DNA from: Podarcis vaucheri
Taxonomy: Eukaryota
DNA: 64,000 nucleotides
NCBI GenBank assembly: GCA_965113315.1
Contig: OZ220369.1
Reading direction: 5' to 3' (one strand)
Each line of letters begins with the position of its first letter. Within the stretch, counting starts at the first letter, position 1. Position numbers and translations under genes: made by a program. Below, piece after piece: positions 5,441 to 12,956 of the stretch. The notes beneath the pieces were generated by a model. The model had not been told where the DNA came from. It searched no databases and saw only the letters and a list, made by a program, of their open reading frames with translations.

Positions 5441-8400
5441 AGATCATTCCAGCAACTGTTCCTGATGGGATCAAGTGAGCTTTGGACTATGGTGTAATTT
5501 TAAAGCACATTCAAAGCGCCATCCTCCACTAAGAATTGTAAGCACTGCACTTTATTCCTCACAGAGTTACAATCCTACACAACCATTAACAAACTGCCCA
5601 GAATTATTGGAGGGTGGAAATGTGCTTTGAATGCATACCCAGCCAAAATTTGTGGTCCTTTTGATCTATTTTTCCAGGCCCATTTCTGCCTCTTTCCACA
5701 AGCTTTCAAAATAGAGGAAAGTAAGTGTAAATGTTAAACTGCCATCAGTTGCTACCAAACCCATGTCTCTTGGATGTGAGATCACAGCAGCCATTACAAA
5801 TAATATAAAAGAGGGAGATATTTCCCAAGATAATTTGGGTTTTGCCTTGACAGTGGATGAAGATACACAGAAAACTGATTTCCATCATCCAGTTCCTCCC
5901 AAGCTGATAACCCTTTGGAGAACACTTGAACAGCTTCCTGGTCAAACTTAATCAATGCTTCATGTATCATTAAATCCATTCACAATATCTTACATTCAGA
6001 CTTGCAGATGTTTTAATGATTGAAATTAGGAATGGAGTATGGTAGTTCATTTTCTCTTTGCAAAAACCTGGGGAAACTGTCTTTGAAGTCTGCTGCATTT
6101 TCCAAAAATTAATATTCAGCTTTGCTAATGTAACAACTAGTAGATTTTCTTTTTAATTCTGATCTCTCTGCCTTACAAGGGACCCAGGAGTTGTGCTGAT
6201 TAGCGCTCAAGACAGATATTAATAATTACTGGCTTTTAATATTTTCAAAGGGAGAGAGGACATTGTTTGGTTATACCAGCATACTTTGGGGAAACCTGAG
6301 ACCTTTTGTGACGTGCAGAAGCCAGTGTAATGGGCTTTTACAAGTAGGGAGTGATAATTGGGCTTGCTTCACATTTCAATTGTAAGCCTGTCTAATTCAC
6401 ACTTCCCATAACAATATGCAAACCAAAGCACAGCTATCTTTTGAAATTTGCACTTCTCTAAATTTTGTGATGCTGATTCCAACCCCAAAATGTATGTATT
6501 AGGGAAAATATGCATAAAATGCATATATTAGTGAAAACAATATGCAAAAATGCAGTTTCAAAAATACGTGTGTTAGGCAAAATTGCATACCAAATGTATT
6601 AGGAGAAATGTGCAGTAAGATGCTGGTGGATTTTCATAGGGACTTTTAAAAAAATTACCAAAAACACAGTTTGTTCTTCTGATCTTTTTGTTCATACACC
6701 CCCCTTTTTTCTTGGATTTGGTTAATTTCATGCCTGAGGAAACAAAGCAGCTACTTTCTAATTTCCAGCTAATCCAACGTCCATTCCTGTGTAAATTGTT
6801 CCTTGCTCCCCCCTTTTTTTTCTAATATGCCTATTGGATGCTTTTTGCTGTTCTGTGTAATTTTCTCCAGAATCTAAATATGCTTTCTGGATTGTTTATC
6901 CATTGAAAGATTCATGAGGTGAAACCTAAAAACAAGATGAGGAATTATCTTTCACCTCCAACAGGCCAACAAGAAATTCAGGGATATCTAGCCTTTGATG
7001 AGTTGAGATTAAACAGAATGATGTGGAGGGGGGAAAACAACTTTTATACAGATATATAAATATTTCTACAATGACCTCCTGAGCTCTCTCGATTCAGCTT
7101 TGTTCAGTGTTTTCATGCTGGTGTTAGATTTTTCAAGCAGATAGTGATCCATCATTGATTAGCTGTCATGGGCTCTGAATGCTAATTAATGCATTTCAAC
7201 TCTTCAACCTCCTTTAAATCAAAGATACTAAAAGCACCACAGTTTTCCAAGGCATGCAAAAGCCAGCACGACTTGAAAAGAAGAAGGAAGCCCAAGGACA
7301 CTTTCAAAAGCGTGCCTAAAGTAAATATTCTTATTTTTAAAAATGAGCATGTCAATTAAGTATGTATGTAGCACCAGAGTTCTGAAACCTGCAACTGCAG
7401 CATGTCATGCTAGAGATGGCCACTGACTCTGATGGCTTTAAAAGACAATGAGGCAAAGTAACATTAGAAGAATCTTCTGGATCAGGACAATGGTCTATCT
7501 AAGCCAGCATCCTGTTCTCACAGCAGACAACCAGATACCAGTGTTAGAAACTGAGATATGAAAGCTAAGAGCTAAATGGCTCCTTAAACCTAGGTGATGG
7601 GCACAACAATGGAATGTCTAGGCACACTTTTTAAAAACAAGAATACAAAGCTGAAAATGAATGAACTGCAGCTAAAATATTATGTTCATTTTTCACATAG
7701 TCTAGTCCTTCCCCTGCCCACCCCCCTAATATTCTTAAGAGGGTCTCTTCTCCTGTCTTCAGAGACTAACTGGAAGTGGGGAGATAGAAAAAGGTCCTCC
7801 TTTCCTTCCCCTCTGCAGTTTTAATCTGAAATTTTAGGTGCAGTGCTGTGCCCAGAGCTCAGAAACTGCTCACACTAATGAAATTCCCTGCCACAAAATG
7901 TGCCTAGAACAATGGGAGTTTCGAACACTGCCAGATACTTGTGGGAAACCCACAAGCAAGACCTGAGCAAAAGAATATTCTCCCCTCCTGCAGTTTTGAG
8001 CAACAGGTATTCAGAAAGCCTTCTGCCTATGTTCATGGAGGCAGAGCATGGCCATCATGTCTAGTAGCCATTGATAGCCTTCTCCGCCAGGAATCTGTAC
8101 AATCCTCTTTTATAGCCATCCAAACTGGTGGCCATCACTGCCTCCTGGAGTAGCAAGTTCCATAATTCAACTATGTGTTGCATGAAGAAACACTTTCTTT
8201 TAACTGTTCCAAATCTTCTACTATTCAGCTTCATTGGAGGCAAAACTGGGTGCACCAGGAACTTATCGAGGGAAGAATTTGGATCTGAAGAACTGAAACC
8301 TTCCTAGTCCCCTGGCATGCCCACCAAAATGAGGGAGGTGGGGATATATCAGCCATGCAGCTGGAATGAGCATTTATCCTCCCAGTGGAAGCAAGGAGAG

Positions 8401-9137
8401 GGAAATTGTAAAATTTCCACCAGCCGGGGGAAAAGCATTGGAAGAAGGGAAGAGAAGACTCCCACCCTCCCTTCCTGTGCCTGGCAAGGCTTTCGATATC
8501 TTTGATATCCCTTTGGCTCTTTCTCAGCCTAGAGGCAGGATGTCTCCCAGCAGTGGGGCTGCTCCTATATTCCTGGGAATGACCCACATTGAACCTCATG
8601 GGAATTGCTTCTGAGTAGGCATGTGTAGGACTGCAGTTTTGGTAATGTTTCAGGTGTGTGCGGGATGATGAAAGGCAGTTTCTAAGAATTTTTCAGGTGG
8701 GGGTGGTGATCCTTGTTCTTTTTGGATTACAACAGCAGCAAGAACAACAACAGCCTTGGCCCCACACTTTGAAGTGTGGTTTGGCTTGACTTTACTCAGC
8801 AGCTCAGTTCGATGCCAAACCACCCATTATGAAGGGAAACCCATAATTTTATATTTATTCATTTATTTATGGCTGTATTTATTGCTGAATGAAACAAAAG
8901 CAGGCTGGGGAAAAGGAGCAACAGTGCCGGGGTCAGATGTTTCACTCTTTCACCTGACAACCCCATAATCTCAAACTCACCTCCAGCTGCTGCCTAGCTT
9001 GCATTTTCCCTCACCAGGGTAAAGGCAGGGGAGGGAGGGAGAAGAGAGATTGAGAAAGAGGGGAGAGGGTTAAGCATCCCTTCCTCAGCACCACTGCCCC
9101 CAATTCAGTATCATCCTGCCTGCTTTTAAGGCAGCCA

Positions 9138-9505
9138 TGTGGGAAAATGATTGCTTGTACATAAGAGCATGAGCAGAGTTCTTATTATTGCAGAGTGATT
9201 TTACAGCACGAGATATTGTTAAGAGCATGATGAGCACGTGAACACCTCATGCTAGACTAATGATTGGCTCACGTAGCATAACACTCTCTTTGTCTGTGTG
9301 GGCAAGGGCAAGGTTGCATTCCTTTGATTGTTACTTTTGAGTACCAGGCAGAACAAGCGCAGTGCTGGAGGAGAGAGGATGATTTATTTCTTACTGCACA
9401 CAATAAACATGGCACGGCTGAAGCCAAAGCTTCTTCTTCAAGTCATCTTGGTGTGAGACTGATTTCTTACTGATTTTCTTACTGATGTCGAGCTGGTTCT
9501 CGACA
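9138..9505 (+). repeat. 5' LTR (368 bp)
   Basis: TG...CA termini, ATTGG (CCAAT box) near 9264, AATAAA at 9402-9407, directly followed by the PBS. 9421-9505 is repeated at 10232-10306. Confidence 0.88.
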
Positions 9506-9507
9506 AT

Positions 9508-9524
9508 TGGTGCCCCGTGTGAGG
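9508..9524 (+). promoter_or_regulatory. Primer binding site complementary to the 3' end of elongator tRNA-Met (second, 14-nt copy at 9564-9577)
   Basis: TGGTGCCCCGTGTGAGG is the reverse complement of CCTCACACGGGGCACCA, the recalled 3' end of vertebrate elongator tRNA-Met(CAT). It lies 2 nt after the LTR-terminal CA. Confidence 0.85.
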
Positions 9525-9669
9525 CTGATTTTCTTACTGATGTCGAACTGGATTCTCGACATTTGGTGCCCCGTGTGTTTGATTCTGGACTTCGCGACGT
9601 TACGGTCTTATCAGCGCTCATCTCGCCCGGCAAGGGTTTCAGACGCGTCCTTCATCCTTTTTTAGGATC

Positions 9670-9678
9670 CCGGTGAGT
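9670..9678 (+). promoter_or_regulatory. Retroviral major splice donor in the leader
   Basis: CCG|GTGAGT lies about 26 nt upstream of the gag ATG, the typical position. Confidence 0.6.
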
Positions 9679-9698
9679 GCTCCCTTACTTTTGCCATT

Positions 9699-10337
9699 AT
9701 GGGGCAGTCTCTCTCTCCACCACAGAAAAAGCTTTTTGAAGACCTTAAATTTCTTTTGACCAGCAACAGCCTTCTCGTCTCAGATGCTGATCTGAAGTCC
9801 CTTATAGAAGCCTTGGATACCCACTGTCCCTGGTTTCCTCAGAATGGGAATTATCATTTAAAAGACTGGGAAAAAATAGGACAATTTTTCCAAAACCATC
9901 CTCTGCTACCAAGCCAAGCTGAAAACCTGGGCAACAGGCTGCGGGAGCTGAAGGCAAGAATAAAAGACCCTCTTCCAGTCCAGCATGCTGAGCTTCAAGC
10001 CACCAAGGAACACGTCAAGAAAAAGGAGATCCTCCTTCAGAGGTGGCAGACCAAGCACGCCTTGACCTTGGCAGCCGGGGAGAAGTTACTTGACGTGGCA
10101 AACCCCGAGGCCAGAATTGCCCTACAGCTCAAGATGACGCATGTGCAAGAGACCTGGAGCAAAACCCAGCTTCAGCTGGAGAAGATCAGAAAGCAGCTTC
10201 AGCGCACCCTGCAGACGTGGGAGAGCTGCAAAAGCCAAAGCTTTTTCTTCAAGTCATCTTGGTGTGAGACTGATTTTCTTACTGATGTCGAGCTGGATTC
10301 TCGACACAGCCATCCTATGCATGCTGACTTGGAGTAA
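9699..10337 (+). CDS. Chimeric open ORF (212 aa): Gag matrix (aa 1-71) + nesprin-2-like spectrin-repeat segment (aa 72-180) + U5/flank-derived tail
   Basis: MGQSLS myristoylation motif. ...LKFLL...HCPWFPQNGNYHLKDWEKIG is the typical betaretroviral p10 matrix motif. It is followed by a helical spectrin-repeat sequence (LTLAAGEKLL, QETW, TWESC, KDPLP). Expression is unknown. Confidence 0.6.
   Translation: MGQSLSPPQKKLFEDLKFLLTSNSLLVSDADLKSLIEALDTHCPWFPQNGNYHLKDWEKIGQFFQNHPLLPSQAENLGNRLRELKARIKDPLPVQHAELQATKEHVKKKEILLQRWQTKHALTLAAGEKLLDVANPEARIALQLKMTHVQETWSKTQLQLEKIRKQLQRTLQTWESCKSQSFFFKSSWCETDFLTDVELDSRHSHPMHADLE
9912..10238 (+). pseudogene. SYNE2: Intronless, circularly permuted retrocopy of two SYNE2 (nesprin-2)-like exons
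   Basis: KKEILLQRWQTKHALTLAAGEKLL...KQLQRTLQ (65 aa) and TWESCKSQ+AENLGNRLRELKARIKDPLPVQHAELQATKEHVK (42 aa) align without gaps to recalled human nesprin-2 NKEIHFQRRRTTCALTLEAGEKLL...KQFQSTVE and TWDQCEKKIKELKSRLQVLKAQSEDPLPELHEDLHNEKELIK, but in permuted order. Confidence 0.85.
10232..10306 (+). repeat. Truncated 3' LTR (approximately U5 only)
   Basis: Near-identical to 9421-9505. No PPT, U3 or AATAAA precedes it. Confidence 0.9.
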
Positions 10338-11554
10338 GCCCTGTTGAACATCCTTCTGCGTAAACACGCACAGGATTGTGCTGGAAGTAAAATTCTGTAT
10401 ATAGGGAAAGCCAACACTGTGCTCTTGTTTTGGACCACAATTCCCATCATCCTTGACCATTGGCCATGCTTTCTGGGGCTGATGGGAGCTGGAGTCCAAG
10501 AGCATCTGCAAGCCACTGTGGTTGGCTACCCCTGCTAAATCTGTTTGGGAGATGCAATCACCCAGCTCTCAAAATAAGGGTCCACTTAAAGTAAGGTGGT
10601 TCAATGCACGGCCCTTTTGTGCCCCCTACCCAAGCCCTCACACTGCCTTCCCAAAGCTGAGTAAGTGAGGTGCTGGGCTTTGGAAAGGAGGTGTGAGGGC
10701 TCTGACAGGGTCCTAGAGTCCTCCATGCTCCTTCCCAAAGCTTAGTTAGTGCTTTCCCAGCTTTGGGAAGGAGGTAGGAGAGCTTTAGGACCCTGGGATG
10801 TGTGTGTCAAATTTTGGCCTCACTCCCCCACCCCCGCCCTGCAGGACAAGCCCTGCAGGTTCAAAGTACTCTTGTGGCTCACTTGGTAAGGAAAGTTGGG
10901 CTGCCCTGTGGTAAAGGATTCCTGATACACTCACTGGCTCAAAGGAGAACAGATTCAGTTTCTACACAATTTTGCATTACAGTATGTCCTTTTAATGGAA
11001 TGGGGCATTGATCAGGCAGGAGAGATGCCTTGTTGCACGATGGATAAAATACTCTTTAATTAAACAGGGCACATTAAAAAACGTGTGGCAAATTTACGGC
11101 AAGCTGTTTTAGTCATTTTTATTTCATTAATACTTCACAGTACTTATGGGTTATGGCTGAATTGGCTTTATAACTAATTAAACCTATTAAGTGTCTCATC
11201 CTTGCGAACCAGAATTGAACCTGTCCTTGGGGGTGGGGCGGGGCGGGGTGCCGAATGGGTTACTAAATCTTCCTTGGGACTGAACTGGAAGTGACAGAGG
11301 CAAAGCTAAATCGAAAACAGAACAGAACCAAATATTTCAGAGGATGTTTATTCCTGCTTCTAAGAGTGCAGCCACATTAGCATATGCATGTTAATAATGC
11401 CAGTTGGAATGAACATTCTGGGAATACAAAACAAAGCGCGATGACAGACAGGCATCTCTCACGAAAGCAACCTGACACAACGAAGGAAGACGTAACAAAG
11501 GGGTGGAAGGAAGGGGAAACAGCAGCAAGCCCCCTCCCCATTTGCCCCATCTAC

Positions 11555-11719
11555 CTGGGCAGGTGGCGGTATTATTGCATATCCGGGTCTCCCGCAACAA
11601 CCCGCTACATAGTGTCCCGTAAGGCGATGAGACGCAGGAGCGAGTCCGCACCTGGGTGCCTTGGCCGCAGGTCAGTGAACAGACGCTCCACTGGGACCAC
11701 TCCTCTGCTGCAGGGTCTC
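11555..11719 (-). CDS. ADGRB2: ADGRB2 exon encoding thrombospondin type-1 repeat 1
   Basis: [54 protein letters not shown] has the WxxWxxCSxTCG and RxRxC motifs. 165 nt, acceptor ctttcccacag|, donor CCAG|gtagat, phase 1-1. Confidence 0.96.
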
Positions 11720-12956
11720 CTGTGGGAAAGAGGGAAACACGCACACAAGCATACAGACACAGAGAAAAACTGGTTCAGCCACCTCCAGAACAGACGGAAG
11801 ACCTGAAAGTAGCTCTGGTGCTGTGCCCACGCACCTAGGGCTGGACAAATCAGGCTATTTCTGGTGGGCATAACTTCTGCTGGTGTTTGAGCATCATTCC
11901 ATTCTGTTCTCTTTCCACATTAATCTGTGTATGTGTGTGCATGTTTTTTTTAAGAGCATCAAACATTTTGTGCAAATGTGTGTTCAAAATACTTATAAAA
12001 TGTATTTTCTCTCAAGATGTCCATTCCCATTCTCTGTCAGACCTCTGGGGTGTGCACTGACCACAAGATGTGGTTCAGAGACCAAATCAGTGCCTGATTT
12101 AGAGTAATAGAATCAGAGAACTGTCTAGCTGCAAGGAACCCACAGGGTCATCTAGTCCAACTAGTTGCCCTTGCAGGAATGACAGCTAAAGAATCCCTGG
12201 TGCATCTAGGCCAGTATTGATTGATAGCAATAGCTCTCTAGGTTTCAGAGGGTCTCTTCTTGCCCTACCCAGAGGTACCGGGGATTGATCCTATGAGCTT
12301 TGGTATGCAGGGCAGATGCTCTACCGCTCAGCTATGGCCAAGCAGCCATGTATGTGTAAGGTTCAGAGCTGAAGTAGTGCACAGAGCAGCAAGCAAGCAA
12401 GCACAGTGTTTGGAGGAGGCTGCCACAGGCAAAATGTCTATCCTAACTGAAACAGCCAACTCAGAAGAGAGAAAACTAGCAAAGCACATAGAACAGACAA
12501 GATCAACATCCCTCCCGCAAAGCACTCTGGCCGGAGGGCCTTGGCAAATCCTTTTTGTGTGTGGATGGACTTGTTTTTAAAAATTGCTATATTTGTATTG
12601 CATTGCACTTTGTATTTATTGTTGCTGTTAAATCACTCAAGATTTATTTTTGTGGGGAAACAATGCACAGAGTGACTAACAGACAAAGATAGAATCCCTT
12701 CTGATTAGAAGTAAGATGTGTCAGTCACAAAAACGCACAAACAATCTGCCTCACCCTCTCCCCACCCTGGCAATTTCCATATATTGTATGGGAAAATTGG
12801 GGAGAAACATTGCAATTTTTGCAGATCACGTTATCCGCAGTTCTGTTTGGTACCAAATTTTCTAATTGCTCACAAAGCTTTGCGGGGCCCCAGTTTTGGT
12901 TCAGAGGGATTTGAAGGGAGCTCAGCCTTGGATAACTCCAAAATAAGCCCAATTTC

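Follow-up and report, generated by a model that had tools for sequence, protein, structure and literature searches.

Circular RNA (circRNA)-derived pseudogenes have been described in mouse and human, and 33 high-confidence copies with varied mutation loads are reported; in particular, the mouse circRFWD2 copies show an enrichment of flanking LTRs and are marked by MMERVK10C-int, and the mechanism of their generation was called mysterious (PMC4897178, Dong et al. 2016). In the accessible part of one review these pseudogenes are read as possible products of LTR-mediated retrotransposition (PMC5408686), and in that of a 2025 review they are still listed as rare (PMC12747553). A preliminary description of the locus presented here considered circRNA retrocopies to be usually attributed to the LINE machinery, a view that does not agree with the LTR enrichment and with the MMERVK10C-int sequence beside the circRFWD2 copies (PMC4897178); since LTR-linked circRNA pseudogenes are already published, the novelty of the present case is lowered. 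Two further systems are close to it. LTR-mediated retrocopies generated by template switching are established across animals (PMC5131818, Tan et al. 2016), and the word "circular" is absent from the main text of that study. In retroviral non-homologous recombination, tertiary host templates are able to splint the junctions (PMC4997597); neither "circular" nor "circRNA" occurs in the accessible text of this review.

The window, which is the whole stretch of 64,000 nt of Podarcis vaucheri that was analysed (G000:C26:34906001-34970000), contains at 9138-10306 an element inserted between two copies of CAGCCA, whose features are collected in Table 1. Target duplications of 6 bp are also present in 7/7 other LTR loci examined and represent the family length. 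The element shares with LTR-mediated retrocopies the replacement of the LTR-element interior by host sequence, the integrase ends TG...CA on both sides together with the 6-bp duplication, and the short sharing at the switch points (11 nt between LTR variant and SYNE2, 11 nt between tRNA and gag, 1 nt between SYNE2 and tRNA). Two complete LTRs and a renewed non-autonomous mobility were not found, the 3' end being 75 nt of R/U5 and the copy being single; the element works like an LTR-mediated retrocopy but is a one-sided variant of it. In fact, the 3' U3 and the polypurine tract are absent from the element, while a purine tract precedes the 3' LTR in 8/8 sisters. Of the provirus bounded by target-site duplications that was claimed previously, the duplications are confirmed by CAGCCA on both sides, whereas the provirus is not whole, due to its reduced right end. 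Features of LINE-type processed pseudogenes, namely a poly(A) tail and an own target duplication around the host part, are lacking; the 7-nt repeat that surrounds the host part is parental exon sequence on both sides.

Table 1. Features of the element and of its target site, in coordinates of the 64,000-nt window.
Feature	Position	Strand	Support or remark
Left target-site duplication, 6 bp, CAGCCA	9132-9137		Identical to 10307-10312
Complete 5' LTR, TG...CA, 368 nt, AATAAA at 9402-9407, assigned to viral RNA 1	9138-9505	+	367/368 nt identical to L009, 366 to seven further loci
18-nt elongator tRNA-Met primer copy (match runs 19 nt), read as the end of plus-strand strong-stop DNA	9508-9525	+	tRNA-Met genes of the genome
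Second, partial U5; putative landing site of a misaligned plus-strand transfer	9525-9561	+	Agrees with the 3' U5 piece at 36/37 nt
Leader, with a second 14-nt motif resembling a primer site	9564-9698	+	One 100-nt leader repeat of sisters missing
5' fragment of gag (matrix), 205 nt	9699-9903	+	Pfam Gag_p10, E 9e-12
Predicted in-frame chimeric ORF, 212 codons	9699-10337	+	gag matrix, tRNA splint, permuted SYNE2, U5, flank
Mature initiator tRNA-Met 3' end including CCA, 19 nt	9893-9911	+	First 11 nt common to gag, last 1 nt to SYNE2
3' part of SYNE2 exon B	9911-10019	+	108/109 nt identical to parent
Non-colinear junction, exon B donor to exon A acceptor	10019-10020	+	Parental splice sites AAG/GT, AG/AAA
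Complete SYNE2 exon A	10020-10214	+	100% identical to parent
SYNE2 exon B, 5' part, joined to A as in normal splicing, without the intron	10215-10238	+	Splice also in RNA runs X15, X23, X24
Putative entry homology, 11 nt, exon B / R of a sister LTR variant	10228-10238	+	Sister-locus comparison
R/U5 piece, 75 nt, ending CA, assigned to viral RNA 2	10232-10306	+	First 7 nt common to SYNE2; without U3 and polypurine tract
Right target-site duplication	10307-10312		Same letters as 9132-9137

The host insert (9911-10238, 328 nt) differs from its parent only in a G>A change at 10002. When searched against its own genome it gave four matches, the window itself and three pieces on C1, and in this search no exon beyond A and B was found to be copied into the window. 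The parental exon A (G000:C1:11226393-11226587, 195 nt) and exon B (11228112-11228237 of the same sequence, 126 nt, 1524 nt downstream of exon A) are both bounded by AG and GT, and each is present in one copy in the assembly. The parent has A followed by B, the window has the 3' part of B, then A, then the 5' part of B, and the junction 10019/10020 coincides exactly with the exon B donor joined to the exon A acceptor. The locus has in common with circRNA-derived pseudogenes a reversed exon junction on the parental splice sites, parental exons that are colinear, single-copy and normally spliced, and a host part without introns, without exons other than A and B and without a poly(A) tail. Much of the preliminary description is borne out by these data. 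The motif AAGCCAA at 9911 recurs after 321 nt, at 10232, translation of the three pieces gives the claimed peptides with no stop codon, the junctions end in AAG at 10019 and in CAG at 10214, and the permuted nesprin-2 order emerges from the comparison with the parent; the genomic test that it had proposed, adjacent SYNE2 exons of 195 and 126 nt with A before B and the junction exactly at the splice sites, was passed, and the tandem A-B-A-B duplication that it had named against itself was looked for in the assembly, which has one copy per exon. The exact match to the B donor and the A acceptor also supports its reading of 10019/10020 as a back-splice-type junction.

The parental gene is that of nesprin-2, since the best match is a protein (P0001) named nesprin-2 of Zootoca vivipara, in which exon A corresponds to residues 5491-5555 and exon B to residues 5556-5597. 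P0001 mapped on the parental locus gives neighbouring exons at L005:3607-3843 and from L006:3689 onwards, and the KASH exon lies 44 kb downstream of exons A-B on the same strand. Among twelve lacertid nesprin-2 isoforms, the start of A, searched as an exact motif, is found once in eight and is absent in four. SYNE1 was considered as parent and was ruled out by the protein names; MYCT1 adjoins KASH on C17 instead, an arrangement that we take to be the SYNE1 synteny. As to the insert alone, a word-indexed protein search returned 76 candidates, none at E <= 1e-5, Pfam gave no family and the Atlas provided spectrin-repeat leads only. The difference at 10002 is a G>A at a CpG, where P0001 of Zootoca has Thr like the insertion and 11 Podarcis isoforms have Ala like the parent; CpG decay, a copying error or a parental allele are its possible sources. 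Both exons are of phase 0, and the 321-nt circle is free of stop codons in the coding frame over repeated turns, which would give an endless frame if translated.

Intronic inverted repeats favour back-splicing, and a pair of them (145 nt, 85%) brackets A-B, with arms 166 nt upstream of A and 292 nt downstream of B, together with a second pair (256 nt, 87.5%) in the same flanking introns. A comparable pair within 500 nt was found in 0/199 control intervals of the window and in 0/58 neighbouring intervals, which overlap and are not independent; at 1500 nt the counts were 5/195 and 0/42, again for overlapping intervals. Intronic inverted repeats are also linked to linear trans-spliced RNAs in the accessible part of one source (PMC10450196) and, since they favour back-splicing and trans-splicing alike, they do not separate a circle from a linear repeat. 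A further inverted pair of 301 nt and 94% (G000:C1:11213090-11213390 and 11228547-11228847, in L007 and L005), whose downstream arm is common to the A-B pair, would promote the formation of larger SYNE2 circles with exon B as their end. In RNA of a related species the linear A-to-B splice is observed in one contig of X15, two reads of X23 and five reads of X24, the X15 contig having the order upstream exons, A, B, next exon. No B-to-A joint is present among the 15 joints listed out of 321, at an exon depth of 5-10 reads in X23 and X24 and with a predominance of intronic repeats.

The run X1, which shows no differences from the parent in the four pieces listed and possibly represents the source sample itself, is not an independent source. 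Contig ends are found in it at L005:5421 and at 7220/7191, in agreement with the presence of the insert in the same DNA, and the depth arithmetic gives a further path of depth 49 from 7191. Two of the four predicted contig breaks were thus seen, while no break was observed at 7159 or at 5559/5588, each of which leads into viral sequence of high copy number; the branch at 7221 could be a parental allele, and the breaks in X1 are a modest support against mis-assembly.

At the left side of the host part, the homology to sister gag stops at 9903 in 29/29 loci, and the left AAGCCAA is SYNE2 sequence and not a gag microhomology. The 7 nt at 9904-9910, which belong neither to gag nor to SYNE2, complete a mature initiator tRNA-Met 3' end at 9893-9911. 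The 16-mer 9893-9908 has 34 occurrences in the genome in comparison to 0 for a reversed control, and it terminates 6/6 tRNA-Met genes in four loci (L074-L077), whose beginnings are presumably initiator-type acceptor stems. None of these genes encodes the CCA with which the window runs on, and therefore a mature tRNA, copied from its last base, appears to be the template. A tRNA/gag match of at least 10 nt, between an 18-nt tRNA end and 1.5 kb of sister gag, was obtained in 40/2000 shuffles. The linker was also evaluated as viral sequence, and rejected as none of the 16 occurrences of its 7-mer in 64 other loci has the three upstream or two downstream bases of the window, and as random filler, which is ruled out by the match with the tRNA-Met genes and by the CCA. 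A comparison of 9000-10500 with Rfam yielded 8 matches, of which none reached the gathering score and none corresponded to the 19-nt tRNA piece, and an exact copy of the gag-tRNA junction is not present elsewhere in the genome.

Among ten loci with the 16-mer, four hold the six tRNA genes and six have no tRNA gene; five of the latter have the 16-mer plus CCA and resemble primer sites of other LTR elements, so that the same letters may alternatively derive from a tRNA attached to another element. In L070-L073 and L078, initiator tRNA-Met 3' ends with CCA are located beside apparent LTR ends in the opposite orientation and probably represent primer sites that belong to other LTR elements. The match with the tRNA extends over about 35 nt in L071 and L072, in comparison to the 18 nt that are usual.

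The exit falls 7 nt into the 11-nt stretch of entry, at a distance of one period. The entry into the next template at its very end suggests that the growing strand had itself reached an end, and an exit inside the entry stretch would be predicted by a circle that RNase H had nicked within the priming hybrid and not by a linear A-B-A-B RNA. One turn followed by a direct return to gag RNA had been proposed; the single turn is retained, while the return would have passed through the tRNA 3' end.

At the right side, exon B shares 7 nt with the 5' LTR of the window itself, and an R variant, GCAAAAGCCAA, found in 6/27 scored sister loci, brings the match to 11 nt. The 3' U5 and leader of the window are closest to copies of this variant type (L039, L040), and, assuming that viral RNA 2 was of the type seen in these 6/27 sisters, the entry match is probably 11 nt and not 7. 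An entry by microhomology between LTR and exon B was already part of the preliminary description, in which the shared stretch was correct and its length probably too short. An 11-nt match anywhere in the LTR was generated in 86/5000 shuffles, and the entry stretch is located 10-20 nt after AATAAA, where the end of R is expected.

The two ends of the element are not equivalent. The 5' U5 differs from the 3' U5 by one substitution, an 11-nt duplication and a 1-nt indel, and the partial U5 at 9525-9561 has one mismatch and one indel in comparison to the 5' U5. Plus-strand strong-stop DNA ends in a copy of the primer tRNA, and the first primer site equals the elongator tRNA-Met of the genome over 19 nt, a form that is found in 0/29 sister sites; the pattern of U5 plus site, searched as an exact pattern that misses variants, occurs once in the genome. 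The tRNA copy matches U5 at 8/9 nt, and the first primer site is what a strong-stop DNA landing on U5 through this match would leave. A 5' LTR that carries the primer tRNA copy and has a U5 different from that of the 3' end indicates the contribution of two viral RNAs. A minus strand diverted to a circle would have no polypurine tract, so that the rescue by a second genome would be required rather than incidental, which in turn argues for one event and against a later editing of an existing provirus. The missing 100-nt leader repeat, present in close sisters, may be due either to a further switch or to an unsampled subfamily.

Taken on the sequence, the capture of a two-exon SYNE2 circle during a single retroviral replication event is likely. 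What is read directly in the DNA are the pieces with their order and sources, together with the homologies at the junctions, and the order of events that we infer from them is the following. The ingredients, brought together as a one-off in a germ line, would be at least two viral RNAs of a young beta-like ERV family, a two-exon SYNE2 circRNA and initiator tRNA. The minus-strand synthesis on viral RNA 2 would copy U5 and about 11 nt of R and, instead of the normal first jump, the 3' end would pair with the identical 11-nt stretch that exon B carries in the co-packaged circle. The enzyme would then copy the 5' part of B, A, the back-splice junction and the 3' part of B, returning to the priming hybrid; this would be cut by RNase H, with the template ending 7 nt into it, after 328 nt. 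The strand end would clamp onto the CCA end of the initiator tRNA, of which 18-19 nt would be copied, to about the modified A58 that normally stops copying, and through the 11-nt tRNA/gag match the synthesis would resume on viral RNA, through the leader into U5. On this strand, devoid of a polypurine tract, a strong-stop DNA from the normal minus strand (RNA 1) would land at U5 by the 8-of-9 match; integrase would finally take the left TG end (RNA 1) and the right CA end (RNA 2), with the consequent 6-bp duplication. The site of the RNase H cut, the extent of R and the A58 stop are presumed.

Some steps have counterparts in the accessible text of other sources. Rolling-circle cDNA protocols use an RNase H-minus enzyme in order to obtain tandem copies (PMC6721031), and end-to-end clamping is known for retroviral enzymes, typically needing 2-4 base pairs (PMC8363836); since one templated pair is visible here, a non-templated base must be assumed. 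The locus would be a record of an RNase H-bearing reverse transcriptase that copied a circRNA for exactly one turn, entering by R mimicry and leaving by tRNA clamping, a detailed reading that is only somewhat favoured.

The same retroviral capture could have started from a linear exon-repeat RNA, A-B-A-B, trans-spliced between two SYNE2 pre-mRNAs, which would yield an identical B-to-A junction and whose formation is favoured by the same intronic inverted repeats (accessible part of PMC10450196). This template is nevertheless unlikely, as it offers no free end at 9911 and leaves unexplained both the exit inside the 11-nt entry stretch, which on a rough estimate would happen by chance in a few percent of cases, and the entry into the next template at its very 3' end; moreover, no exon outside A and B was copied. 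The one-turn problem is shared by a parent carrying a genomic tandem A-B duplication in some allele, in which the B-to-A junction would be an ordinary linear splice. The region is repeat-rich and an unsampled allele is conceivable, but the single A and B of the assembly, the presence of at most one start of A in the twelve lacertid isoforms (exact motif) and the exon order of the X15 contig render such a duplication highly improbable.

A different sequence of events would start from an existing provirus: a LINE reverse transcriptase or an RNA-templated repair would later prime at its 3' R/U5 and copy both circle and tRNA, and the joining to gag would delete about 3 kb. One base pair, as is observed here, is sufficient for the end-to-end switching of non-LTR enzymes (accessible part of PMC8363836), and the 7-nt repeat resembles a duplication. 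However, two rare events would be needed at one locus, there is no poly(A), the gag-tRNA junction has no exact copy elsewhere in the genome and nothing would make an enzyme that lacks RNase H stop after a single turn; in addition, the mismatched U5s and the tRNA-length primer site, which are necessary under a single event, would become a separate accident, and this later editing is very unlikely. Least probable of all are a chimera produced by the assembly and a template slip on linear mRNA which by chance hit both splice sites: no read spanning the insertion was directly seen, and the 2 nt (AG) shared at the junction are usable for a slip, but the target duplication, the spliced junctions, the CCA-bearing tRNA end and the unique primer site are implausible products of mis-joined genomic reads, and two of the breaks predicted from the insert are present in X1, at L005:5421 and 7220/7191, together with the additional depth-49 path.

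The retrovirus to which the capture of the circle is attributed is a betaretrovirus-like ERV on the basis of its Gag_p10 matrix domain, which we take as the link to the betaretrovirus family. The family (L008-L067) is young and abundant, with 357 LTR candidates of which 40 were scored, 94-100% identical; its members have an LTR-to-LTR spacing of about 3.4-3.9 kb in paired matches, an elongator tRNA-Met primer site, a duplicated primer-site/leader unit and, in 25/29 loci, a gag frame of 336-356 codons, and the family looks non-autonomous. In the comparison of 40 internal segments no other capture was identified as host sequence. Four internal stretches, in L039 and L067 (about 375 nt) and in L017 and L034 (about 100 nt), are common to at most one other sister and are possible further captures or subfamily variants.

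Since the LTR has 1/368 differences from its closest relative and the host part 1/328 from the parent, the insertion event appears very recent. The insertion is single-copy and most likely neutral and intronic, and it is devoid of the polypurine tract and of the 3' U3 needed for further movement. Thrombospondin-1 exons flank it (at about 972 and at 11391-11774 of the window, minus strand), and it is therefore antisense inside a gene, presumably that of an ADGRB/BAI receptor, probably ADGRB2. Several dispersed repeat families, including 13802-14101/48988-49287 and 35259-35489/57979-58209, are also found inside the stretch and are of a kind that we take to be typical of squamates.

In comparison to the mouse circRFWD2 copies, the locus has in common a non-colinear exon junction in DNA, the lack of poly(A) and the LTR association; in contrast to them, for which the LTR link consists of proximity and enrichment, it is a single and nearly unmutated reptile copy in which every junction is assignable, with one full turn and a tRNA splint (PMC4897178). 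As in the LTR-mediated retrocopies, according to the main text of PMC5131818, host RNA is found in the interior of an LTR element with short sharing at the switch points, more than two switches and an in-frame fusion, and their 2-26-bp extra sequence at some junctions also has a counterpart here, which differs in being an identifiable tRNA end. In those retrocopies the switches occur within the element body and both LTRs are kept, whereas here the first strand transfer would be replaced and the 3' LTR is without U3. Retroviral non-homologous recombination with tertiary-template patching, as treated in the accessible text of PMC4997597, is similar for the co-packaged host RNA, the chance microhomology and the splinted junction; unlike those cases, the present one is germ-line and integrated, and its main host template appears to be a circle. 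In the literature searched, which covered few subscription papers, neither a reptile case nor an LTR element carrying a single-turn copy of a circRNA together with a tRNA splint was found; the comparison was made on the text of PMC4897178 and the main text of PMC5131818, and similar junctions could be present in the figures of the former and in the supplements of the latter. The idea is not new in kind, and the tRNA splint together with a legible one-turn mechanism is its new part.

The mechanism of copying from circRNA to genome was left open by PMC4897178, and this young copy allows each switch to be assigned, with testable predictions that include the one-turn limit, the exit within the priming hybrid, the tRNA ends as splints and the rescue by a second genome. 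If these are general, LTR-linked circRNA pseudogenes, including mouse circRFWD2, would show at most one turn plus a few bases, with exits inside the entry homology, and tRNA 3' ends would be hidden in junction sequence scored as "de novo"; in this regard, the locus suggests that the "non-templated" fillers at LTR-retrocopy junctions should be re-read as possible tRNA ends. The locus also provides indirect evidence, drawn from DNA, for an exonic circRNA that would once have been present in the lizard germ line and in a retroviral particle, and back-splice reads for the exon pair A-B in carriers of the insertion may derive from DNA. If the proposed capture is true, a back-splice junction placed in frame behind a retroviral promoter and a gag start would represent a route to exon-permuted genes.
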